From the sequence record PZ476263.1: a DNA stretch of 64,000 nucleotides. The stretch is one strand, 5' to 3'. The notes beneath the pieces were generated by a model. That model was not told where the DNA came from and did no database searches. It was given only the letters and a program-made list of their open reading frames with translations. Positions 17,554-58,601 of this stretch are shown piece after piece. Each line of letters starts with the position of its first letter. The stretch's first letter is position 1. This DNA comes from a phage. The translations under genes and the position numbers were made by a program.

Positions 17554-17898
17554 TTACTTAACACCAAAAAGTCGTTTAGAAAAACTGCCAGACTTAAACA
17601 AATAGTTGAACAAAACTATCAAAGAGTAAATAGTCCATACAAAAACATAAGTGAAAACTAAAAATCCCCAAGTGAAAGGCCAAAATAATGCATAACCTAC
17701 AGATTTAAACAGTAGAACATTATAATCGCTTTCCGTCAACTGGTCCTCTTTTAATTCTTTAAAGGCAACGATCGGTTCACCTGGTGGCATGATCAATTGG
17801 AAACCTTTTAGGCGTGCACGTACTAGAGCGATATAAAACACATTCAAAAATAATGCAATGGCAAAATAAGCCGTAACATACGTGGTGATATCATTCAT
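17554..17898 (-). CDS. Membrane protein, paralog of 17909..18235
   Basis: Shared FWPF(T/G)W(G/A)FL motif and TM layout. Confidence 0.6.
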   Translation of the reverse strand: MNDITTYVTAYFAIALFLNVFYIALVRARLKGFQLIMPPGEPIVAFKELKEDQLTESDYNVLLFKSVGYALFWPFTWGFLVFTYVFVWTIYSLIVLFNYLFKSGSFSKRLFGVK

Positions 17899-17908
17899 AT
17901 TCTTTCCC

Positions 17909-18235
17909 TCAATTATCTTTCATGTTAAATATTTTTCTTGCTAATTTTTCATTACCGATAGTAATTTGCCATAACCGGATTAGAAGAGTTAGCGCACAAA
18001 CTATCAGGTAGAACAAAATCAAGAAGGCCCACCCGAAAGGCCAAAATACTGCCATCACTAGCCACCCAATCATCAAGGCATTCCAATTAATCCTCCCCCT
18101 ATTTAAAGGGTCCAATAGATTACCACCATTCTTTGCAGGTAAAGGTATATAAAACCCACATTGCCGTAATTTTATTAAAATGAACCACACACCTGCACTT
18201 ATAATAACCCCTAAAAAATAAACTAATATGCTCAT
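17909..18235 (-). CDS. Membrane protein, paralog of 17554..17898
   Basis: AVFWPFGWAFLILFYLIV. Confidence 0.6.
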   Translation of the reverse strand: MSILVYFLGVIISAGVWFILIKLRQCGFYIPLPAKNGGNLLDPLNRGRINWNALMIGWLVMAVFWPFGWAFLILFYLIVCALTLLIRLWQITIGNEKLARKIFNMKDN

Positions 18236-19506
18236 ATTTCTTTCTCCTCCTCTTCTTTCAGTTTTAATTTTATCTCGGCAAGTGCCTTCTTAACATAACC
18301 TACTTTGAGGTCCCTTACTTTTGAACGAATAACTTCTGGTCGTCCTTTGAATTTTTCAGCGATATCTTTACTCTCTTCAGAGATAGCTACACTGTTTTGA
18401 GTAATCCCTGCCAGTGCTGAATATAATACTTCAACAGAGTCGTACTTGTCAAACATTTTTTCTTCCCCACGTCCTCGTGCATCACAAAGACAAGCCTCTG
18501 CAAACTTCCCAAAAAATTCTTGGTCTTTTTCTCCACGTAGCCGATAGATAAGGTCATACACGGAGGTTGCTTTCATATCTTTGATTCTATGCATACGTGT
18601 ATGTTCTTCGGTCACAATCATGGCAAGCTTTTTCCAACTATTTGGAACACCCATACGATCACAAAGTTCTTCAACAATCGGAACTCCGTATTGTTCATGA
18701 CCATGAAGCTTTTTATCTCTCCAATAAATACTCTTCCCTAGGTCATGACAAAGAACAGCCCACTTAACATCCGGCGGTGACATGATCTTTTGAGCGTAGT
18801 CCAAACACAAAAAGGTATGGATCAGTGCGTCACCTTCTGGATGGTGTTTCTTCGGCTGCTCAACATAATGAAGATTGAACAGCTCAGGAAATTCACCAAG
18901 TCCTGTCAAGAAGCGGAACATAAGGCTAGGCTTATTCTTCTCAGAGTTATCCATGAGACATTTATTAATCTCTGCCCACTTGCGTTCTTTTGGTAGGTAC
19001 TTAACTTGAGCATATCCATTAAAACATGCAGTTAAAGTATCAGGGTGGATACTGAAATCATCACCATATCGAGCATATAACCTTGCAAGTCGATAAATAC
19101 GCAAAGGGTCTTCTTGGAATGCAGTTTTGGAAACACACCGCAAAGATTTTTGCTTTAGGTGCTCAATACCTCCAAATGGATCAATATACTCACCTGTTTC
19201 GAGGTCTTTTGCAATAGCGTTGATAGTTAGGTCGCGTCTTTCCAAATCTTGTTCGATAGTCACATCTGGAGAAAACACAACTTCGAAATCATGATAGCCA
19301 GGTCCTGTTGATTTTTCAGTACGGGCCAGTGCATATTCTTCTTTTGTTAACGGATCAAGGTATACAGGAAACGCCGCCCCCACTTTTGTAAATCCCTTTG
19401 CGATCATTTCTTCATGGGTTGAGCCGACGACAACATAATCTCGGTCTTTACTTTCAACACCCAGAATCTCGTCACGTACTGCACCACCAACTAAATAGAT
19501 TTTCAT
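18232..19506 (-). CDS. cca: CCA-adding tRNA nucleotidyltransferase with a C-terminal HD domain (424 aa)
   Basis: N-terminus MKIYLVGGAVRDEILGVESKDRDYVVVG matches bacterial Cca. HD motif HHPEGDALIHT. Confidence 0.9.
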   Translation of the reverse strand: MKIYLVGGAVRDEILGVESKDRDYVVVGSTHEEMIAKGFTKVGAAFPVYLDPLTKEEYALARTEKSTGPGYHDFEVVFSPDVTIEQDLERRDLTINAIAKDLETGEYIDPFGGIEHLKQKSLRCVSKTAFQEDPLRIYRLARLYARYGDDFSIHPDTLTACFNGYAQVKYLPKERKWAEINKCLMDNSEKNKPSLMFRFLTGLGEFPELFNLHYVEQPKKHHPEGDALIHTFLCLDYAQKIMSPPDVKWAVLCHDLGKSIYWRDKKLHGHEQYGVPIVEELCDRMGVPNSWKKLAMIVTEEHTRMHRIKDMKATSVYDLIYRLRGEKDQEFFGKFAEACLCDARGRGEEKMFDKYDSVEVLYSALAGITQNSVAISEESKDIAEKFKGRPEVIRSKVRDLKVGYVKKALAEIKLKLKEEEEKEI

Positions 19507-19859: not shown

Positions 19860-19887
19860 ATTATACACCATCATAAAAATAAAGCAA
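19860..19887 (-). promoter_or_regulatory. Sigma70-type promoter TTGCTT-N16-TATAAT
   Basis: -35 at 19882-19887 and -10 at 19860-19865 on the minus strand. Confidence 0.55.
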
Positions 19888-19888
19888 C

Positions 19889-19912
19889 AAAAAAGGCCAC
19901 CCGAAGGTGACC
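19889..19912 (-). terminator. Rho-independent terminator GGUCACC-UUCG-GGUGGCC-U6
   Basis: 7-bp stem, UUCG tetraloop and T6. The same 18-mer occurs at 61171 on the plus strand. Confidence 0.8.
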
Positions 19913-19919
19913 TTTAAAT

Positions 19920-20429
19920 TTAAGGATTTACCCAATAGAAGGGCTTATCCAATCCTAGTTTTCCCTGCTTATCCCAAACGAAATAGGCATAAGCTGCACC
20001 ATCTGTTTTACCGTTATCGGTAAACGATGGACGCTTTGAAAGAGTGATCAAGTGATCCACCGGATACTTTTTCCAAAACTCAACTCGCTTTGTACTCTCA
20101 AGAAAACCTAAACGAAGTAACATGATAATCACATCAGCATCTTCATGTGCTTTCTCTACAAACTCCTGAGCCAAACAGTAAGGAGGGTTCGTAATAATGC
20201 AATCTACACGATTGTATTTTGTAGAAAGGTAATCAACACCTTCACGAATCTCTCCCCACGCAGAACCGATAGGTAATTCATTGTAGAATCTTCCAGATGC
20301 TCGGCAAGGTTCCAGATATGTCCAGTCATTTCTAATCGGTACGATATCTAAAAGGCAATCAACTGCCCACTCCGGAGTTTCATAAAGATCATATGCATTT
20401 CGTTCTGCTTTCGGCTTCAACGCTGCCAT
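19920..20429 (-). CDS. DNA N6-adenine methyltransferase, small gamma-type (169 aa)
   Basis: Motif I-like LEPCRASGRF lies upstream of motif IV IITNPPY. Confidence 0.7.
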   Translation of the reverse strand: MAALKPKAERNAYDLYETPEWAVDCLLDIVPIRNDWTYLEPCRASGRFYNELPIGSAWGEIREGVDYLSTKYNRVDCIITNPPYCLAQEFVEKAHEDADVIIMLLRLGFLESTKRVEFWKKYPVDHLITLSKRPSFTDNGKTDGAAYAYFVWDKQGKLGLDKPFYWVNP

Positions 20430-21280
20430 TACTGATTAACCCCCTTTTTGATTTCAGTGATAAGAGTATCGATAGCTTCTTCCCAATTCAACTCATTCAG
20501 CTGAAGACCAAAACACTCCCCGATCTCATCGATCTCTTCTAAAGTGTACTCATTGAAGTCTTTAGGGTTAATGTCGAAAATGTTGAAGGCTTTTGTATAT
20601 CCGCAGTCCAGTTCAATTGTAAACGAACCTTCGAGAGATCCTTCTTTTTCTTCAGTAACTTCAGGACTCGGTTCGACTGCCGTTTCAACTTGTGACTCCT
20701 CCTGTTCCTCGACTTCAATCTGTTTTTTAATGATCTTGTCTTCTTGTTCAAGACGTGCTTGCATTTCTTCATGATCGAAATAGATTTCACCAGACCGTTC
20801 AAACAGCTCGGCAATTTCTTCAGGTGTCATGATGTTTTCATACATCGGCAGATATTTCTTTTTAAACAGTTTACGATAAAAATCTGTACGTGTCACCAAA
20901 TGGGCCATATCACCACCAAAACCCAACTGAACGTTGTGGAACATGTAATAAGAACCTGGACGACAGATTCGAACATGCCCTGCTAAGAAAATACCCGTTG
21001 CAGCACTTGCAACTTCACCGATCCCGTGGGTAACCACTGTTGCTTTACTTTCAGAGATGGCTGCGATGTACATGTCTTCTACATTACACAAACCGCCGCA
21101 GGATGTTACATAAAGATTAATAATGTCACCTTCCGGCGCTGTACGGATCAGGTCTACAACTTCGACATGTTGATTTGGTGAATCACCCAACTCAGTTACA
21201 TACACACGCCATTCAGTAGAGGTATGTGGAGTTGCCCAAATGTTACTCTTTTGCGGTAAAGTCATTTCCATCTCAGACAT
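20429..21280 (-). CDS. ClpP/S14-like serine protease with an acidic C-terminal extension (283 aa)
   Basis: INLYVTSCGGLCNVEDMYIAAI...GEVASAATGIFLAG...YMFHNV aligns with the ClpP Ser and His regions. Confidence 0.6.
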   Translation of the reverse strand: MSEMEMTLPQKSNIWATPHTSTEWRVYVTELGDSPNQHVEVVDLIRTAPEGDIINLYVTSCGGLCNVEDMYIAAISESKATVVTHGIGEVASAATGIFLAGHVRICRPGSYYMFHNVQLGFGGDMAHLVTRTDFYRKLFKKKYLPMYENIMTPEEIAELFERSGEIYFDHEEMQARLEQEDKIIKKQIEVEEQEESQVETAVEPSPEVTEEKEGSLEGSFTIELDCGYTKAFNIFDINPKDFNEYTLEEIDEIGECFGLQLNELNWEEAIDTLITEIKKGVNQ

Positions 21281-21281
21281 A

Positions 21282-21767
21282 TTAAATACCTCGCTCGTTA
21301 AGTAAATTACGGATGTTCGGTGCGTTTTGTATTACCCATTCTACTACAACAGAATGATCAGAGTCAACAATTACTTCGTGGTGACGCTTAAACATATCAA
21401 GAATCTTTTCTGCTTCTTTAACGTAACGTACTGCACGATCAACAAGAATCAGTTCATCCTTATCTTCTTGAGATACAGGGCATAACTCAGAAGGCACTGT
21501 TATTTCAGAAAGATGATTTACCAGCTCATCCCGATTACTGAACATAATGTCGACTTCTTGACTGATCGGGTAGGATCCGAATGTTAAGATTTTATCCAGC
21601 CAACTTTTATTTTCCTGCTTAAGAAGACGAGCGTCTTTAATTTTGTAACGCAGAGAAATAAACACCTGATTTGCGAGTCGCTCTAGTCGTTCAATTTCTA
21701 GAATACCGCAATTTTTTAACATCATCAATTTACGATGCTCGACTGTACCAAACATACCTTTATCCAC
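21282..21767 (-). CDS. Hypothetical protein (161 aa)
   Basis: Intact co-oriented ORF. Confidence 0.6.
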   Translation of the reverse strand: MDKGMFGTVEHRKLMMLKNCGILEIERLERLANQVFISLRYKIKDARLLKQENKSWLDKILTFGSYPISQEVDIMFSNRDELVNHLSEITVPSELCPVSQEDKDELILVDRAVRYVKEAEKILDMFKRHHEVIVDSDHSVVVEWVIQNAPNIRNLLNERGI

Positions 21768-21776
21768 TAAAACCCC

Positions 21777-22127
21777 CTAGATCGCAACTAAATATTTAAA
21801 TGTACCATTCTCTCGACTTAATTCAAAAATAACATAGAACCAAACATCATGCCCTGATTCGTTTTCGACTAATACGCGATCACCTTGTTTTAATTCTATT
21901 CCTGAAATGTACTCTTGAGATTCTGTAAAATAACGCCAACGAGACATTTCTTTAAACGAACAGATTAGTTCGCATTTCCCATCTACTGACCAAAGATCTT
22001 GGTTTACCCAATTACCAACCACAAACTCATTAGACTTCTTATACTTACCCAAGGAGTACACTGAATTTAATCGTTTAGCCTTTTCTGATTCCACGTTTAT
22101 TCTCCATGTTTTGTAAGAATGTTTCAA
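21777..22127 (-). CDS. Hypothetical protein (116 aa)
   Basis: Intact ORF overlapping the 3' end of the upstream gene. Confidence 0.55.
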   Translation of the reverse strand: MKHSYKTWRINVESEKAKRLNSVYSLGKYKKSNEFVVGNWVNQDLWSVDGKCELICSFKEMSRWRYFTESQEYISGIELKQGDRVLVENESGHDVWFYVIFELSRENGTFKYLVAI

Positions 22128-22698
22128 GGACGGACAAGTTCTCTTCTTTCCACAGATTCAGAGTACGTATCCCATGCTTTTTAGCCATATTCACTGCGGA
22201 GGCTGTTCCGCCTAAAGCGTTACCGCTTCTTGTTTCTTTAGCGTAGTATATAACAAACTTACTCGATGTCAAGTAAGCATTTGACAAATCTGCACCAAAT
22301 ACTTGGTGAATATTACGCTCATGCAATTTTCTAGCTCCTTGACTCAACCTCTCCCAGCCACCATGTACTTCTTTAACCCATTCCCATCGCATCTCTTTCA
22401 TTTCAGGATTTAATTTGTCCAAGGTATCTAAATCGATATTGTAAATATCGAGAAGTCCTTCACCACCTTTAAAATTTTTCCAAGGTACATAAATTTCAGC
22501 TATTGTTTTTGGTGATTGGGTCATATTGCAATCCTTATGGTATCTTTGAGCACCCCTTTGAAATGCTGCATCTGCACCATTTGCTCCACCGGATCTCAAT
22601 ACTAAGCCAATCCTTGCTAAACGATAACCTGTATCCTCCATTATGTCAATTACATTTGGAGGTGTTTCTCTTGACCCTATTCCTGTATAAGCTGCCAT
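22075..22698 (-). CDS. SLOG/DprA-like Rossmann-fold protein (207 aa)
   Basis: GIGSRETP...LRSGGANGADAAFQRGA...GGTASAVNMAKKHGIRTLNL. Confidence 0.45.
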   Translation of the reverse strand: MAAYTGIGSRETPPNVIDIMEDTGYRLARIGLVLRSGGANGADAAFQRGAQRYHKDCNMTQSPKTIAEIYVPWKNFKGGEGLLDIYNIDLDTLDKLNPEMKEMRWEWVKEVHGGWERLSQGARKLHERNIHQVFGADLSNAYLTSSKFVIYYAKETRSGNALGGTASAVNMAKKHGIRTLNLWKEENLSVLETFLQNMENKRGIRKG

Positions 22699-23169
22699 TT
22701 AATCAACCTCCCAACCATATGAAGTTTTTCTCCATAACCTCTGATTATCAGATCCACGGAATTTCTTCTCAGTGGGATTATCTTTTTCAAACTTACCGTC
22801 TATTATTACATCTGTCAAAATTTTAATTTCTTCAGGTATGTTTTCAAAAGTGTATCCCGTCCATAAATAAATATCTTTCGAACCTCCAAACTTCTTCCTT
22901 ACCGAATTTAAAATATCAATAACAAATTCGATATTTTCTGAGTCGAGAGGCTCACCACCCAAAACTGAAAGACCTTTAATGAATGGTCGGGATAAGTCTG
23001 CAAGTAATTTTTCCTGGTCCTCTTCTGTATATAACTTACCGGAAGTATAGGACCAGAATTTTTTATTAAAACATCCCTTGCATTTGTGGCTACACCCACT
23101 AACCCATAAAGACGTTCTAACCCCATCCCCATTTATGAGGTCTGTGTTTTCGTAGCCACAAATATTCAC
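22699..23169 (-). CDS. nrdG: Anaerobic ribonucleotide reductase activating protein (radical SAM)
   Basis: SGCSHKCKGCFNKKFW cluster. 4-nt overlap with nrdD. Confidence 0.85.
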   Translation of the reverse strand: MNICGYENTDLINGDGVRTSLWVSGCSHKCKGCFNKKFWSYTSGKLYTEEDQEKLLADLSRPFIKGLSVLGGEPLDSENIEFVIDILNSVRKKFGGSKDIYLWTGYTFENIPEEIKILTDVIIDGKFEKDNPTEKKFRGSDNQRLWRKTSYGWEVD

Positions 23170-25253
23170 CGATGCTTCTCCCTTTGTAAGACTTCTTGCA
23201 TTTTACCTTTATTATAAGGTCTTGAGTTAGGTGCTGACAAATATCCAGATACCCGTCGAATCACCGATATCGTCCCTTCTTCATTGTTTCCACAACACGG
23301 ACATTCAAATCCTTTAGCTGTAGCATTGAACTCCCCAGAGAAATTACATTTAAAACACTGGTCTACTGGTTGGTTAATCCCGAAGTAAGGAATAGTATCA
23401 TAGCCGTAATCGATCAAAGTTTCAAGAGCTTCCATATTATTTTTCAAATTTGGAGTCTCCACGTAGCCAATATTGCCACCGCTACTGATTGTCGCAAAAC
23501 CTTTCTCATAATTCCACTTGCTGAAAGGATCAGACAGTTCCCAAACAGGTAAATGAAAAGAGTTCGTCAGGTAATCCCTGTTCATTTCTTCAGGGAACTT
23601 CTCTTTCAGTTTTGTAGCGAAACGATAGCATAAGCTTTCAGCAGGCGTACCGTACAGACTAAAAGATAAACGAGAACGCTCTTTAAACTCATCACATTTT
23701 AACTTCATATGATTAAGTACCATAATCGCCAACGTTTTATCAAGATCTCCGGTTACAATCTTTATAGCTTCTGCAAGACCGACGTAACCTATACTAATTG
23801 AGGCATACCCATCATAAAACAACTTACCGATCTTTTCTTCAGGCTCTAATCGGGAAAGTGCACCCTCTACAAAAAGTGTTGGGTTCTGCCCTGCTTTTAC
23901 ATCCTTTAAGCGATCAACCCGAACCATTTGAGCTTCATATGCCTTTTCCATATGCTTATCTAACGATTCATAAAAATCACAGCCGATAGTTTTAGATTCT
24001 GCTGCAATTAAAGGTAGGTTTATTGAAACAACCCCCAAATTAAAACGTCCGTCGTATTTTTCTCCGTTATCTGTCGTAAATTTTGACAGGAAGCTCCTAC
24101 ATCCCATGCTTGTTACCTTACCTTCTGTAGAACCCGTAACTTCTTTATTTAAAGGAACCGAAATAAAATCAGGATAGATTCTTTCAACACAACAATCCAT
24201 CGCCAACTTCTTAAGATCGTAGTTCGGATCTTCAGGTTTCATGTTCACACCATCTTGAAGGAAGAAAACTACCTTCGGAAAAACAGGTGTTACACGATCC
24301 TTTCCCAAGCCCCCAACATGAACCTTAAAATAGTTCTTAGTTATCATCCTACCAAAAACAGAAGTGTCTAAACCCAGACTAATAGTTATAAAAGGAGATT
24401 GACCGTTAACACTCATCAACGTATTTACTTGATACAACAATGTTTGCATCGCATCGTAAACGTCACGATCCGTCATTTCCATTGCTTTATCTTTATCTAC
24501 CACTCCGATATCTTCGAGTAGTTTTACGTTCTTCTTATAACTCATTTCTGCGTATTGCTTAAGCCCTTCATCGATATGGGCACAAGTTTGTCCACCATAC
24601 TGACTAGAGGCAACAGCTTGGATTATCTGGGTAAGTACAGTTGTTGCAACACCGATAGATTTAGGCTTTTCAATCTTTGCATTACCAATCTTAAATCCAT
24701 TTTCCAACATGTCGCGATAATTAACAAGGCAACAGTTTGTCAGTGGACTGATCAGGTAATCCAAATCATGAATGTGACCGTAACCATCATTGTGCCAAGC
24801 TGCAAGGTCTTTCGGTAAGATCTGACTTGTTGCTACATGCTTACTTAGGATACCTGCTAAAAGATCACGATGACTATTTACCAAGTTCGCTGGCTTGTTT
24901 GCATTTTCTCTCGTAAACTCTTCTGCGGATTGATCAAGAAATCCAGAGATATCTGAATAAAGTTTACCTTTACCTTCTCGATAGCTATCACGATCATGTC
25001 GATATTCAATATATTTTCGTGCAGCATCACGAGTCACCTTTGAACTCATCATGATATTCTCTACAGCTGTATGAATACTTTCTACAGAGATTGTATCATT
25101 ACCTTCTAATGACTTAACCACTTTTGCTGTAACGTTATTTGAAATCTTTTCATTTTTGATTTCACCTGCTGAAAAAAGAGCGGCCTCCACTGCCGCTTTA
25201 ATTTTCAAACTATCAAATGCTTCCTTGCAACCATCCCTTTTTATAACATTCAC
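23166..25253 (-). CDS. nrdD: Anaerobic (class III) ribonucleoside-triphosphate reductase
   Basis: N-terminal ATP-cone MNVIKRDGCKEAFD. Zn-ribbon CFKCNF...CPCCG. Glycyl-radical motif RRVSGYLS. Confidence 0.9.
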   Translation of the reverse strand: MNVIKRDGCKEAFDSLKIKAAVEAALFSAGEIKNEKISNNVTAKVVKSLEGNDTISVESIHTAVENIMMSSKVTRDAARKYIEYRHDRDSYREGKGKLYSDISGFLDQSAEEFTRENANKPANLVNSHRDLLAGILSKHVATSQILPKDLAAWHNDGYGHIHDLDYLISPLTNCCLVNYRDMLENGFKIGNAKIEKPKSIGVATTVLTQIIQAVASSQYGGQTCAHIDEGLKQYAEMSYKKNVKLLEDIGVVDKDKAMEMTDRDVYDAMQTLLYQVNTLMSVNGQSPFITISLGLDTSVFGRMITKNYFKVHVGGLGKDRVTPVFPKVVFFLQDGVNMKPEDPNYDLKKLAMDCCVERIYPDFISVPLNKEVTGSTEGKVTSMGCRSFLSKFTTDNGEKYDGRFNLGVVSINLPLIAAESKTIGCDFYESLDKHMEKAYEAQMVRVDRLKDVKAGQNPTLFVEGALSRLEPEEKIGKLFYDGYASISIGYVGLAEAIKIVTGDLDKTLAIMVLNHMKLKCDEFKERSRLSFSLYGTPAESLCYRFATKLKEKFPEEMNRDYLTNSFHLPVWELSDPFSKWNYEKGFATISSGGNIGYVETPNLKNNMEALETLIDYGYDTIPYFGINQPVDQCFKCNFSGEFNATAKGFECPCCGNNEEGTISVIRRVSGYLSAPNSRPYNKGKMQEVLQREKHR

Positions 25254-25255
25254 TA

Positions 25256-25999
25256 TTAACGACCTCCAAGATCTCGTTCACGAGCTTTAACAACTGCCTT
25301 ACAGAATCCACCACGAACAATCTCATCACTTGTGGTTTCAACGAAATCTGCAAAATCAAACAGATTGTGTCGGTCGATAAATTCAATCGCCCATTCCAAC
25401 CCTGTCTCCCGATTACGCATATCATTCTGAGAAATATCGCCCAAACAAACCAGTTTTGAACCTTCTGCAAGTCGAGTCATGATCGTGTATGCTGTATCTT
25501 CATCGGTGTTTTGGAATTCATCAATGATAACAACCGCATTTTCAAAAGAACGACCACGAATATACTCCAAAGGCACAAACTCAATGTTACCACAACCAAC
25601 CTGAGTCTCAAAGAATCCATGACCATATCGTTGTTGGATAACTTGAATCATAGGCTGAAGATAAGGTTCGAATTTTTCTCGAACTGTACCAGGCAGCAAA
25701 CCTAAGCTATTCCCCATTCCCAATGTAGGGCGAGAAAGAACGATCTTGTCAATCTTGCCCTGCTTTAACCAATCAATAACGGTACTCATAATAATAAACG
25801 TCTTACCTGTACCAGCCGGAGCATTCACGAACACTGCATCCTTAGTATTTACAAGAGATAACAGTTTTTCTTGAAAGCGGTTTTTCGGTCGGACTGGTTT
25901 TTTCAACTCTTCAAAAGCTTTCGGTGCTACTTGACGGCCTTTTACTCGTTTCTCTTCACGGCGTTCCTGACGAGATTTACGGTTTGTATGACGTTGCAT
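25256..25999 (-). CDS. phoH: PhoH-like ATPase
   Basis: Walker A NAPAGTGKTF and Walker B VVIIDEFQN. Confidence 0.85.
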   Translation of the reverse strand: MQRHTNRKSRQERREEKRVKGRQVAPKAFEELKKPVRPKNRFQEKLLSLVNTKDAVFVNAPAGTGKTFIIMSTVIDWLKQGKIDKIVLSRPTLGMGNSLGLLPGTVREKFEPYLQPMIQVIQQRYGHGFFETQVGCGNIEFVPLEYIRGRSFENAVVIIDEFQNTDEDTAYTIMTRLAEGSKLVCLGDISQNDMRNRETGLEWAIEFIDRHNLFDFADFVETTSDEIVRGGFCKAVVKARERDLGGR

Positions 26000-53695: not shown

Positions 53696-54050
53696 ATGTC
53701 TGCTACATTCGCACCTGCGAGTCGCAAGCAACAAATGGTTCTCGAATCTACAGCACAGATTATGGTAATAGGTGGTGCAGCAGGATCAGGTAAATCATAC
53801 CTTTTACAGTTGATGCCTTTGCTTATTGTAAACGACCCTAAAACAGCCTGCATCATGTTTCGTCGTACTGTACCGCAGATTCGTGGACAAGGTGGCTTGT
53901 TTGACAAAGCTAAAGATATTTATAACCAGCTGCCTCCGGTAGTTAAGCCGAAGTTTAAAGAGAACGAGATGACTGCTACATTCCCTAACGGAGCAACCGT
54001 TAAGTGGCAGTCTATGCAACACGTAAGTGATAAATACGACATCCAGGGGT
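53696..54050 (+). CDS. terL: Terminase large subunit, exon 1 (Walker A)
   Basis: GGAAGSGKS. The ORF stops at TAA 54050-54052, right after KYDIQG. The exon ends on the U at 54050. Confidence 0.8.
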
Positions 54051-54960
54051 AAAAATTTCCTGCCCATCGTATCTTAATCGGTGAAACTCTGTTATAATAA
54101 GTACAGACAATACCGAGATCCATTACCTGAAATGACAGTAGGGAGATATGATGAAAAAATTTGAAATTGTTCCAAGCAAACCTGAATTTTCCGTAAGTGA
54201 AGACGGGCTGATTATGTTTACCTCTACAGGTACTATTCTTAAGCCGTATGTTGATAAGGATGGTTACCACAGGGTTAGAAATTTCTCTGCTGGAGGTAAA
54301 TCTCATTACATCGCCGTTCATCGCGCCGTTGCTGAGGTTTTTGTTAAAAACCCTAACCCAAAAGTGTTTAAGATTGTTAATCACTTGGATAATGTTAAGA
54401 GCAACAATCATAAAACCAATTTGGAATGGACAACCGAATCATTAAACCGAGTTCATGCAGTTCATGCCAACGGTACAGCATCTGTTAGAAACAATGTTAA
54501 ATTTACAGAAGGTCAAGTCAGAAAGGTGTGTGAACTTTTGAGCTTGGGCTATCGGATAGTTGATATTGTGAAACTTACAGGCGTTGATAGATTCAATGTG
54601 ATGGCAATTAGAAGCGGAAAATCTTGGGTTCAGATCTCTTGTGAGTTTGAAACTTTAAAAGTAGAAAGAAAAGATACACTGTCTGAAAAGACGATTCTTT
54701 GGATTAAAGACCAAATTAATCGCCAAAGGTCAGATGATGAAATACTTTTAATGTCGGTAAGACTTACAAAAGAAGAGCTTGAAAGAGCAAAGAAGATTAT
54801 TTCATTGATGGATTGTAACGACTAATGCTGATGAGTGTAAGCATGTAGGGCCAAGCGGTCCGAAACGATACGCCAAGGATGGAAGATATAGTCTGAACTA
54901 TATGGTGACATATAGCTGCTTAAGCAGGGTTAAGATTAGCGATCTTAATCGAACACAATG
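54051..54960 (+). mobile_element. Group I intron (td-like, IA2-type core) carrying an HNH homing endonuclease gene
   Basis: The 3' part gaagatatagtctgaactatatggtgacatatagctg...ggttaagattagcgatcttaatcgaacacaatg closely parallels the T4 td intron 3' end as I recall it. It starts after a U and ends in G. Confidence 0.7.
54148..54825 (+). CDS. Intron-encoded HNH homing endonuclease (225 aa)
   Basis: GYHRV...HRAVAEVFVKNPNPKVFKIVNHLDNVKSNNHKTNLEWTT (I-HmuI / HNH_3-like). RBS AGGGAG. Confidence 0.8.
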   Translation: MMKKFEIVPSKPEFSVSEDGLIMFTSTGTILKPYVDKDGYHRVRNFSAGGKSHYIAVHRAVAEVFVKNPNPKVFKIVNHLDNVKSNNHKTNLEWTTESLNRVHAVHANGTASVRNNVKFTEGQVRKVCELLSLGYRIVDIVKLTGVDRFNVMAIRSGKSWVQISCEFETLKVERKDTLSEKTILWIKDQINRQRSDDEILLMSVRLTKEELERAKKIISLMDCND

Positions 54961-55020
54961 TGGAATTTACATTTATAGGTGTGGACGAAGGCACTCAGTT
55001 TGAGTGGGAGCAGTTAATCT
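54961..55020 (+). CDS. terL: Terminase large subunit, 60-nt exon 2 (Walker B)
   Basis: Joining gives ...KYDIQG-L-EFTFIGVDEGTQFEWEQLI, in frame. Ends on the U at 55020. Confidence 0.65.
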
Positions 55021-55341
55021 AGCTGCCTCGTACAGTAATGTACGATGAGAAATTCTTGTGAATTGCTGGAAAATCCTTAGAGCTTGTAAAACTACAACAT
55101 GACCTGCAAAGGTGAGTGTGAATGTTAAAAATTTACAAGATTGGACGATCAGCCTCCAAGCCTCTTTACGAGAGGAAGGTTCAACGACTAGCCGAAAGGC
55201 GTAGATCATAAGCAAATGATGATCGAAGTGCAAGACCCCTACCTTATTGGTAGGGTGAAGATATAGTCTGATCTGCATGGTAACATGCAGCAGTGCTTGA
55301 GTGCACGGCAACGAACTTGCGATCCGTTGCGAACATAACAG
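55021..55341 (+). mobile_element. ORF-less group I intron (td-like core)
   Basis: gaagatatagtctgatctgcatggtaacatgcagc...gcgaacataacag mirrors the 3' core of intron 1. Internal ggttcaacgactagccgaaaggc. The alternative 3' end at 55329 is also in frame. Confidence 0.6.
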
Positions 55342-56420
55342 TAGAATACATGATGTCTCGTCTTCGTTCCAGTTCTTCTTACCCTTCACGAATGGTAATT
55401 AGTTGTAACCCTGATCCTGATCATTATCTTCGTAAGATGGTTGATTGGTATCTCGATAAGGATGGTTATCCTGATCCTACAAAGGATGGAGTCATTCGAT
55501 ATTTCGTTCGAGTTGATGACCAATACATGTGGGGCGAATCAGTAGAAGAGCTTAAGAAGCGGTACGGTAAGAAATGTAAGCCTGTTTCTTTTACATTTAT
55601 ATCTTCTACTATTTACGATAACCCACCAATGCTTATTAACAACCCAGACTATCTAGCACAGCTGGAAGGTCTTAATGAGGTTGACAGAGCAAGACTGTTA
55701 CACGGCAACTGGGATGCACGTCCTCAGGGTGCTAACTATTTTAAACGTTCTTTTCTTAAAGAGGTTGATGTTCTTCCTTTAGGTGTAGATAAGGTTAGAT
55801 CATACGATAAAGCAGGAACTGAACGTTCTACAGGTAATAAAACACCTGACTTTACAGCCGGAATCGGTGTGGCGAGAGATCAGGACGGAATTTATTATCT
55901 TTTTGGCGATTATTGTGAAGAGTTTGTTGATGAAGGTGATTGGTCTACTGGCAACCTTGGTAGGTTCTGTAAGAAAGCTGGTGAACGAGATACGATCATT
56001 ATGAAACAAGCAATTCATGACGGTGATGATGTTAGAATAATATTCCCTGTTGACCCTGGTCAAGCGGGTATTGCTGAATTCACTACATCTTCCCGAGAAT
56101 TATTAAATCAAGGATTCATTGTTGAGAAAGACCCAACTCCTGGTAACAAGAAGAAGCTTGTACGCTTCTCTCCGTTTGCTAACCTTGCTCAGAACGGATT
56201 TGTTAGGATTGTTAAAAAGTCTTTCCCTTTGGATACCTATGAAGCATTAATGAAAGAGCTTGAATCTTTCAATGGTGAAAGGTCAACAGGGACACGTAAA
56301 GATGACTGGGTGGATGCTATCTCAACCGGAATAAATTTCCTTGAGAAAACAGAAATAGTCAGGGCTGTTACAATACCACGACCTTCTGCCCCAACACTTT
56401 ATTCGAAGTATCGACGATAA
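55342..56420 (+). CDS. terL: Terminase large subunit, exon 3 (nuclease domain)
   Basis: ...L-EYMMSRLRSSSSYPSRMVISCNPDPDH.... Spliced total is 1494 nt, giving 497 aa. Confidence 0.7.
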
Positions 56421-57962: not shown

Positions 57963-58028
57963 TCTTTGCTTTAAATCAATCTCTTGCAAAACGTATCGTT
58001 CAGTGTTAAAATAAATATCACGGGAGCA

Positions 58029-58601
58029 ATGATGGAAAACATTACTATCTCCGACCTTCCTTCACATACCTATCTGTCTCGAATTCAAAAGAGTCGGGCT
58101 GTGAAAAAGGCCAATGAGCTACTTGAAAAGGGCTTCAATAAGGAAGCCTCTATATCAGGAGCCATTGGCTCCGTTCTTATTCAAAAATCCAATCAGCAAG
58201 AAGAAATGATTTCTTATGAAATTATTTACGAACCTGATACTCCTGACCTGCATGGTCAGTGGATGAGTAAAGAAACATTAGTTAAGGCGCAACAGGATTT
58301 CAAAAAGGCTCAAGAAATAGGGGCCGTAACTGAAAACCTTTATCACTTGGTTGATACCGAAGCATTCAAGATCGTAGATCATTGGATTCAGCCAGAATTT
58401 GATGTAACTGTCGCTGCGACAGGTGAAGTCATTAAAGCAGGATCTTGGGTAGCAAAAGTTCAATATACACCTGAAGCATGGGAATTGAAAAAGGCTGGCA
58501 TCGTCGGCGGATTATCTCTTCAATGTGGCGGGATGTTGAATGAAGAAACAAATGAGCTATCCGATCTTGATTTCAGTATCGCATTGGAAGAGGAAGAATA
58601 A
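58029..58601 (+). CDS. XkdF-like (Peptidase_S78_2-type) prohead protease candidate (190 aa)
   Basis: IIYEPDTPDLHGQWMSKETLVKAQQDF motif. ATG at 58029 after GGGAG. Confidence 0.5.
   Translation: MMENITISDLPSHTYLSRIQKSRAVKKANELLEKGFNKEASISGAIGSVLIQKSNQQEEMISYEIIYEPDTPDLHGQWMSKETLVKAQQDFKKAQEIGAVTENLYHLVDTEAFKIVDHWIQPEFDVTVAATGEVIKAGSWVAKVQYTPEAWELKKAGIVGGLSLQCGGMLNEETNELSDLDFSIALEEEE

Follow-up and report, generated by a model that had tools for sequence, protein, structure and literature searches.

A ClpP-like peptidase gene overlapping a small adenine methyltransferase gene in a divergent rV5-like phage

The window analysed here is the whole 64,000-nucleotide stretch of phage DNA in sequence record PZ476263.1, and our subject is two genes that touch each other on its minus strand at 19920-21280, one for a ClpP-like serine peptidase and one for a small adenine methyltransferase. 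Taken as a whole, they are probably best explained as a non-capsid peptidase of early type that works without ClpX/ClpA docking and a DNA-methylating catalytic core, which are neighbours by synteny only. The cassette is already annotated in many phage genomes and is found here in a new, divergent rV5-like phage. The features on which the argument turns are listed below, with model confidence given as the predicted local distance difference test score (pLDDT).

20429..21280, minus strand: ClpP-like serine peptidase gene, 283 amino acids, orthologue of the Vequintavirinae 'ATP-dependent protease' (CR9 gp221)
20774..21280, minus strand: ClpP-fold catalytic core of the peptidase, residues 1-169, pLDDT of about 90 or higher over most of the core
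21005-21007 and 20936-20938, minus strand: catalytic codons of Ser92 and His115, respectively; Glu165 stands at the position of ClpP Asp171
20630..20773, minus strand: long acidic helix (residues 170-200) and disordered acidic linker (204-217), varying in length and sequence between relatives
20432..20629, minus strand: conserved C-terminal domain of the peptidase, residues 218-283, a beta-hairpin and a helix-extended-helix (HeH) motif with a marginal resemblance to Rho_N/SAP
19920..20429, minus strand: small gamma-class N6-adenine methyltransferase core, 169 amino acids, without target-recognition domain
57984..58601, plus strand: XkdF-type (Peptidase_S78_2) head protease, 205 amino acids, directly after the portal gene, likely the true prohead protease

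The 283-residue product matches Pfam PF00574 (CLP_protease) over residues 52-131 (30.8 bits against a cut-off of 20.2, E 3.2e-7), and its best PHROGs are 'ATP-dependent protease' families (phrog_5410 at E 2e-74, the other at 3e-36). Modelled as a monomer with AlphaFold2 from a 38-sequence alignment (mean pLDDT 85), its core is predicted to take the ClpP alpha/beta fold, with residues 125-147 forming a long helix at the place of the handle helix of ClpP. The motifs GEVAS92AA and MFH115N align with the ClpP nucleophile and catalytic histidine. Conservation was counted over 193 sequences, namely this protein and 192 cluster representatives: Ser92 and His115 are invariant (193/193), as are Gly62-Gly63, and an acidic residue, D or E, stands at position 165 in 176 of the 193 (91%). 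Glu165 was matched to ClpP Asp171 by hand alignment (ERSGE165IYF against ERDRD171RF), which makes the acidic member of the triad less certain than the Ser/His pair. Because the serine and histidine never vary and an acidic residue is so regularly found at 165, the peptidase looks catalytically intact, active and under selection. The ClpP-like protease that had been predicted from the letters of the window alone is borne out. An S49/SppA-type identity was considered as well and rejected, ClpP being clearly the better structural match.

Homologues occur in 1131 phage records. T5 T5.042, the BF23 'Clp protease' ORF45, ICP1 gp211 and the 'ClpP subunit 2' of KVP40-like phages belong to the same family, at 25-30% identity and with the Ser/His pair kept, whereas bacterial ClpP (MEROPS S14; E. 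coli ClpP, PDB 1TYF/3MT6) is only about 18-20% identical and lacks the C-terminal extension of the phage protein. Our literature searches returned nothing on phage-encoded ClpP, on ClpP-like proteins together with PhoH, on T5.042 or on a Vequintavirus adenine methyltransferase, and the rV5 genome and proteome paper mentions neither a protease nor a methylase.

The C-terminal extension had been described as some 110 strongly acidic residues. The composition stands, since the last 111 residues hold 30 D/E against 9 K/R (net charge -21), but what was taken for a tail is really a linker followed by a conserved folded domain. In the AlphaFold2 model this domain spans about 65 residues (~219-282) and consists of two strands and three helices (pLDDT 88-96). 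It is conserved among relatives, unlike the variable linker, and is present in 26 of the 192 representative clusters. Pfam Rho_N (PF07498) matches 3 of these 26 members (best E 0.0036), and a profile of the domain family searched against the PDB has residues 5-50 of the Rho N-terminus as its top match (E 0.021). The C-terminus of the window peptidase itself matches no Pfam, NCBIfam or PADLOC family over cut-off and gives no Rho_N match. The helical half of the domain may thus bear a marginal resemblance to the Rho_N/SAP HeH motif. Acidity was rejected as a defining property of the domain, as distant members are near neutral (-5 to +3). In FelixO1-like and related homologues (loci L003 and L004, 8001-8741), a basic, proline-rich tail, KPxKKPRKKKV, stands where the rV5-like proteins have their acidic linker, with the opposite charge.

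Several lines of evidence support the conclusion that the ClpP-like gene is not the prohead protease. The window has a rightward head module at 53.7-61.2 kb, with a split TerL, a Mu-type portal, the 205-residue Peptidase_S78_2/XkdF protein, a 361-residue protein, a decoration protein and a lambda-E-type major capsid protein. The XkdF-type protein scores 57.4 bits against Peptidase_S78_2 (cut-off 24) and is 36% identical to ICP1 gp125, a predicted capsid protease encoded in the late capsid operon (PMC7567579). Its positional counterpart in Certrevirus CB7, with the same gene order and a matching size, is CB7_5, which follows immediately on the portal gene, is annotated as a prohead core protein protease and was identified in purified virions; mass spectrometry of CB7 virions found 26 proteins, none of which maps to the ClpP-like region (PMC7344957). 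The ClpP-like gene itself belongs to a PhoH-Nrd operon on the opposite strand, some 35 kb away from the head genes.

The same separation recurs elsewhere in the family. In FelixO1-like contigs an S49 protease is encoded next to the portal, and PhoH is immediately followed by the ClpP-like gene. In T5, T5.042 adjoins dnk in the early region, and BF23 has a separate prohead protease, ORF164 (PMC10644984). ICP1 gp211 comes three genes after PhoH (gp208) and closes the range gp176-gp211, which holds nucleotide-metabolism genes whose expression peaks at 12 min (PMC7567579). The ClpP-like gene lies between frd and a recombinase gene in a KVP40-like phage and directly after DHFR in a Bacillus phage. 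From T4 biology, KVP40-like phages presumably have a capsid protease of the T4 gp21 type. The window peptidase scores far below the cut-off of the head-maturation model NF045542 (27.1 against 120), and its matches to head-protease PHROGs are far weaker than those to the 'ATP-dependent protease' PHROGs. We conclude that it is not the prohead protease because it sits in an early or nucleotide-metabolism operon, because the phage has its own XkdF-type head protease, and because the family coexists with dedicated capsid proteases. The original prediction had placed an XkdF-like protease in the head block and had for that reason doubted that the ClpP-like gene plays this part; both points hold.

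Two annotations in the head module deserve a remark. TerL is split at 53696-56420 on the plus strand: an open reading frame (ORF) at 53696-54052 matches positions 148-262 of the TerL profile and a second one at 55293-56420 matches positions 279-624, with an HNH endonuclease ORF (54148-54825) between them. A splicing-competent, HNH-bearing intron in TerL has been shown in Certrevirus CB7 (PMC7344957). The head protease of XkdF type has phrog_1530 as its best PHROG, which bears the label 'DNA methyltransferase', as do several GenBank records of rV5-like phages. Given the Pfam match, the position after the portal and the homology to ICP1 gp125, the label is a mis-annotation that is propagating.

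Whether the peptidase could dock to a host unfoldase was addressed by aligning E. coli ClpP, whose sequence is identical to PDB 3MT6, to the hidden Markov model of the family. The hydrophobic pocket of E. coli ClpP that receives the IGF/IGL loops is made up of Y60, Y62, F82, I90, M92, F112 and L114, as described in the ClpP-ADEP and ClpX literature. Its equivalents in the window peptidase are N55, Y57, E77 (by hand alignment), H85, I87, I105 and R107. In the family as a whole the pocket-equivalent columns vary and are mostly polar or charged; those at Y60, M92, F112 and L114 are mostly H/E/N/R, E/T/D, E/I/V and S/N, respectively. The first ~48 residues of mature ClpP, which comprise the axial loops and helix A, find no alignment to the family. 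Scores against the ClpP equivalog models are low, at 12-25 bits overall against cut-offs above 200 (TIGR00493, 11.9 against 308.6; NF001368, 20.4 against 249). Because the pocket is not conserved, the N-terminal region does not align and the equivalog scores are low, canonical docking to ClpX/ClpA appears unlikely. The suggestion in the original prediction that the enzyme may act with host ClpX/ClpA is therefore disfavoured.

The 169-residue protein matches phrog_799 (E 5.5e-67) and carries motifs in the order X, I, IV: YETP at residues 16-19, EPCRASG at 40-46 (20292-20312) and NPPY at 81-84 (20178-20189). In an alignment of 42 sequences T18, P41, N81-P82-P83, R133-P134-S135-F136, D143 and Y147 are invariant. 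AlphaFold2 predicts a single Rossmann-type domain (pLDDT 91) with a class I S-adenosylmethionine-dependent methyltransferase fold closest to N6-adenine enzymes. A profile of the family searched against the PDB matches M.TaqI at E 2e-7, aligning its motif X (ETP), motif I (EPxxGxG) and NPPY; this match needed the family profile, as the single sequence gave only a spurious oxidoreductase. No Pfam, NCBIfam or PADLOC family is matched over cut-off, PADLOC giving only a weak generic 'Type II MTase' match, and the protein stays under the curated cut-offs of Eco57I (PF07669, 14.5 against 25.3), Dam (PF05869, 13.9 against 28.1) and TIGR01712 (11.6 against 97). Among the 42 family members, 10 match Eco57I and 7 match Dam at E <= 0.01; MTS is matched by 9, and RrnaAD and EcoRI_methylase by 7 each. 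No target-recognition domain is found: the chain ends about 85 residues past NPPY and aligns wholly to the catalytic domain.

The evidence at the level of motifs and fold thus supports an M.TaqI-like gamma-class N6-adenine methyltransferase core devoid of a target-recognition domain. It differs from M.TaqI/Eco57I-type gamma-class enzymes in being only 169 residues long, in missing the C-terminal recognition domain and in the shorter spacing of motifs I and IV. The small phage Dam enzymes (PF05869/TIGR01712, ~165 residues) are also orphan phage enzymes, of like size and with (D/N)PPY at a similar position, but the similarity is confined to the neighbourhood of NPPY and the window protein is not a member of that group. 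A search of the neighbours at 18.2-22.7 kb (the ClpP-like gene, phrog_7224, phrog_5456, the DprA-like gene, phrog_12008 and the tRNA nucleotidyltransferase) gave no nuclease match, and the methyltransferase therefore counts as an orphan. In these terms, the orphan adenine methyltransferase with motif I before motif IV that had been read from the window is supported.

As to its specificity, the authors of the CB7 study tie the CB7 orthologue to Dam-like DNA methylation by protection from ClaI digestion; host Dam could be an alternative cause of this protection. The frequency of GATC was tried as a clue and proved uninformative, with 343 sites observed in the window against 339 expected. Over positions 1-64000 the hexamers CTGCAG, AGGCCT, GGTACC, AGTACT, CTCGAG and GAGCTC are wholly absent (0 observed against 5-13 expected), and CCGG and CTAG are depleted (observed/expected about 0.63). 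The missing 6-bp palindromes and the two depleted tetramers look like restriction-site avoidance.

The nearest GenBank phages to the 19.5-21.8 kb region reach only about 77% nucleotide identity by megablast, with partial coverage (Escherichia phages A7_1, A73, W70 and UPEC06; Certrevirus phages CR9, DU_PP_I and POP15). The window has the rV5-like layout, with a long leftward non-structural block and a rightward head module, and the source is a divergent rV5-like (Vequintavirinae-type) virulent myophage. The arrangement of the two genes is not unusual, being conserved among Vequintavirinae, whose records already annotate it. In CR9 the genes gp221 ('ATP-dependent protease') and gp220 ('DNA methyltransferase') overlap by the identical 1 nt, and the gene order is the same in UPEC06, in Erwinia phage pEa_SNUABM_55 (Henunavirus) and in Klebsiella phage Seu621 (Mydovirus). 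The flanking genes agree with the window where annotated, pEa_SNUABM_55 being annotated with hypothetical proteins only. In CR9, UPEC06 and Seu621, order, orientation and overlap or near-abutment are as in the window, and so are the flanks, with phrog_7224 upstream, a terminator and a promoter downstream and the tRNA nucleotidyltransferase further on.

The Vequintavirinae peptidases share the C-terminal domain of the window peptidase. Identity of the latter is 59% with the nearest GenBank protein and 41-47% with the Certrevirus type, and its linker is shorter and more acidic than that of Certrevirus. The methyltransferase is ~80-83% identical to its Vequintavirinae counterparts. The order phrog_7224, ClpP-like gene, methyltransferase is retained even in the metagenomic relatives L016 and L017, whose peptidases are only 32-35% identical, and across genera the junction is a start/stop overlap of 1-4 nt or a gap of at most 2 nt.

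That the two genes are a functional pair is a reading that the data do not back. Searches of the fetched loci with hidden Markov models found the methyltransferase in three unrelated phage contigs without any ClpP-like gene (L005, L006, L007), and also found loci of FelixO1-like, T5, ICP1, KVP40-like and Bacillus phages that have the ClpP-like gene but not the methyltransferase. The ClpP-like proteins of T5, ICP1, KVP40-like and FelixO1-like phages also have no beta-hairpin/HeH domain. One rV5-like contig (L015) encodes a peptidase with the C-terminal domain and has a different gene downstream. As both genes occur apart in other phages, we regard them as syntenic neighbours with no demonstrated functional unit; an obligate peptidase-methyltransferase module is rejected, and the adjacency is a conserved synteny at the level of the clade.

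The more constant neighbour of the ClpP-like gene is phrog_7224, which adjoins it upstream in the window and in all 8 of the other rV5-like loci (L001, L002, L010, L011, L013, L015-L017), including those that lack the methyltransferase or have a degraded peptidase. Salmonella phage NINP13076 (Seunavirus, L013) has at 4923-5435 a ClpP-like remnant that aligns to query residues 11-131, and its syntenic site is devoid of the methyltransferase. With a truncated peptidase gene and no methyltransferase in this phage, both appear dispensable in at least one Seunavirus.

In the explanation that we favour, the peptidase would be made before or alongside the DNA-replication functions, would assemble into a ClpP-like ring and, in the cytoplasm during infection, would cleave proteins or peptides of host or phage origin, with no use of the canonical docking pocket for ClpX/ClpA. 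Within the rV5-like clade, the flexible acidic linker would tether the small beta-hairpin/HeH-like domain, which is most likely a protein-interaction module for targeting or as an adaptor. The methyltransferase, having no cognate nuclease, would most likely methylate phage DNA at a short or Dam-like site.

Some points weigh against this explanation and lead into its alternatives. The docking argument leans on a distant alignment and a list of pocket residues from the ClpP/ADEP literature, and ring assembly, the timing of expression in this phage and the activity of the peptidase are what we infer. Vequintavirinae are reported to be exceptionally sensitive to restriction-modification systems (PMC8594841), so the methyltransferase gives no broad protection. 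Purified virions of BF23 gave a low-intensity signal of the Clp protein, which leaves room for a capsid-associated role, and the authors call its function 'currently unknown' (PMC10644984). In its full form, such a role would make the ClpP-like protein a displaced or second capsid protease, brought into proheads by its C-terminal domain and processing scaffold or internal proteins. Apart from BF23, this idea draws on secondary head-maturation matches (phrog_1684 at 1.6e-15, phrog_94 at 3e-11, NF045542 at 3.5e-6) and on the build of core, linker and small domain, which may resemble the tethering of prohead protease and scaffold; the C-terminal domain profile also aligns, at a non-significant E of 0.55, with 8qqn, a head-tail connector protein like HK97 gp6 and SPP1 gp15. 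We hold it to be quite improbable. The best families and the NF045542 score point the other way, as do the strand, distance and operon of the gene, and in CB7 it is the protease in the XkdF-like position that was found among the virion proteins and not the ClpP-like one. The family coexists with XkdF, S49 and T5/BF23 prohead proteases (and, as an expectation only, with T4 gp21 in KVP40-like phages). Furthermore, the BF23 Clp signal lay ~25-fold below that of the prohead protease and the early enzyme DHFR co-purified more strongly (PMC10644984), so that carry-over is a plausible account of it. We give similarly little credence to the idea that the phage peptidase replaces or mixes with host ClpP and, driven by host ClpX/ClpA, redirects ATP-dependent proteolysis during infection. 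It would fit the ClpP fold and catalytic residues, the helix at the position of the handle helix and the annotation 'ATP-dependent protease subunit' found in most GenBank records, but the pocket has changed (Y60 to N, I90 to H, L114 to R and, by hand alignment, F82 to Glu77), the N-terminal 48 residues of mature ClpP remain unaligned and TIGR00493 is far from its cut-off. The family data thus speak against the two labels in default use, 'head maturation protease' and 'ATP-dependent Clp subunit working with host ClpX'.

For the methyltransferase, the alternative is that the small NPPY enzyme acts on RNA, methylating rRNA or tRNA adenines and not DNA. The family profile matches ErmC' in the PDB at 1.3e-6, by structure rRNA m6A enzymes come nearly as close, and the RrnaAD and MTS matches (7/42 and 9/42) go in the same direction. 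The missing recognition domain, the CCA-adding tRNA nucleotidyltransferase two genes downstream and the want of obvious restriction protection in Vequintavirinae would also suit an RNA enzyme. The best profile and structure matches are nonetheless DNA enzymes, M.TaqI and Eco57I (10/42, best E 1.3e-7), the N-terminal ETP motif agrees with motif X of M.TaqI, and the ClaI protection of CB7 fits Dam-type DNA methylation, with the caveat on host Dam given above. We therefore consider RNA methylation unlikely, though worth keeping in mind. Much less probable still is a functional module in which the methyltransferase is recruited or regulated by the HeH-like domain of the peptidase, or is its substrate. 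The tight junction kept across genera and the joint presence of the C-terminal domain and an adjacent methyltransferase in 7 of 8 intact rV5-like loci would speak for it, but this co-occurrence is confounded by shared ancestry. Contig L015, the three contigs with a methyltransferase alone and the phages whose ClpP-like genes come with neither domain nor methyltransferase all stand against it.

A gene for a PhoH-like ATPase adjoins the ClpP-like gene or sits a few genes away in FelixO1-like contigs, ICP1, Vequintavirinae and metagenomic rV5-like contigs (loci L003, L009, L011, L015 and L017; 25256-25999 in the window). The two are also next to each other in Alteromonas V22 and in Pseudomonas phages phiPsa315 and Kremar, according to GenBank or published annotation only. 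In the examined loci of T5, KVP40-like and Bacillus phages, no PhoH gene was seen close to the ClpP-like one. The repeated proximity elsewhere hints, speculatively, at a phage-encoded partner of the peptidase, for which PhoH is a candidate. It is a long shot that the ClpP-like proteins encoded in the early regions of more than 1000 phage genomes form an autonomous phage proteolytic machine that needs no host ClpX/ClpA and is maybe powered or guided by PhoH, and whose HeH-like domain in rV5-like phages could recruit specific targets, host defence or nucleoid proteins for example. The family is present in well-studied model phages such as T5 and ICP1, and its substrate could point to a general way in which phages take over the host or counter its defences. 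The methyltransferase, which has no recognition domain, may represent a minimal adenine methyltransferase. The locus itself is a routine annotation result, and its interest lies only in the function of the widespread ClpP-like family.

The remaining features of the region, all within the leftward block, are as follows.

21282..21767, minus strand: phrog_7224 protein, 161 amino acids, directly upstream of the ClpP-like gene in rV5-like loci
19892..19915, minus strand: intrinsic terminator closing the operon, from fold energy and covariation across relatives
19860..19887, minus strand: promoter-like site for the next unit (TTGCTT, 16 nt, TATAAT), read from the sequence
25256-25999, leftward: PhoH
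23166-25253, leftward: NrdD
22699-23169, leftward: NrdG
22075-22698, leftward: DprA-like gene
18232-19506, leftward: CCA-adding tRNA nucleotidyltransferase, two genes downstream of the methyltransferase

The leftward operon begins at about 26 kb and is tightly packed, with two small ORFs between the DprA-like and ClpP-like genes; the latter and the methyltransferase are its final two genes. The ORFs of 283 and 169 codons are real genes and not chance ones, as their family matches are highly significant. The contact between stop and start noted originally is in fact a 1-nt overlap at 20429: the junction on the minus strand reads ...CAG TAATG GCA..., and the last A of the peptidase TAA is the A of the methyltransferase ATG. 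A Shine-Dalgarno-like AGGGGG lies ~10 nt upstream of this start, and the 1-nt overlap probably couples the translation of the two genes.

Downstream of the methyltransferase, a terminator had been proposed to close a two-gene unit. The terminator holds, but it is the whole operon from PhoH to the methyltransferase that ends there. At 19915-19892 on the minus strand, a 10-bp stem with a UUCG loop is followed by a T-run (-15.1 kcal/mol, z -3.8). Among five Vequintavirinae-type phages compared, the hairpin is identical in the window, CR9 and UPEC06, while Seu621 and pEa55 have a different, fully complementary stem and retain the UUCG loop; this covariation between genera supports a genuine terminator. 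The promoter placed beyond it holds as well, with qualifications. Its -10 box is a perfect TATAAT (19865-19860) and its position is conserved in relatives, which have better -35 boxes (TTGACT/TTGACA), but the -35 box in the window is weak (TTGCTT, 3/6, with a 16-nt spacer) and the site falls under the threshold of a sigma-70 scan. The scan gave 27 promoter-like sites in the region against 23.9 +/- 5.4 in shuffled sequence; with no excess over shuffled sequence, consensus alone cannot call internal promoters here.

Further along the same strand, at 17554-18235, two adjacent genes encode small membrane proteins of 114 and 108 amino acids that look like paralogues and share the motif 'FWPF(T/G)W(G/A)FL'. 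They sit between the tRNA nucleotidyltransferase gene and an ORF of 145 codons.

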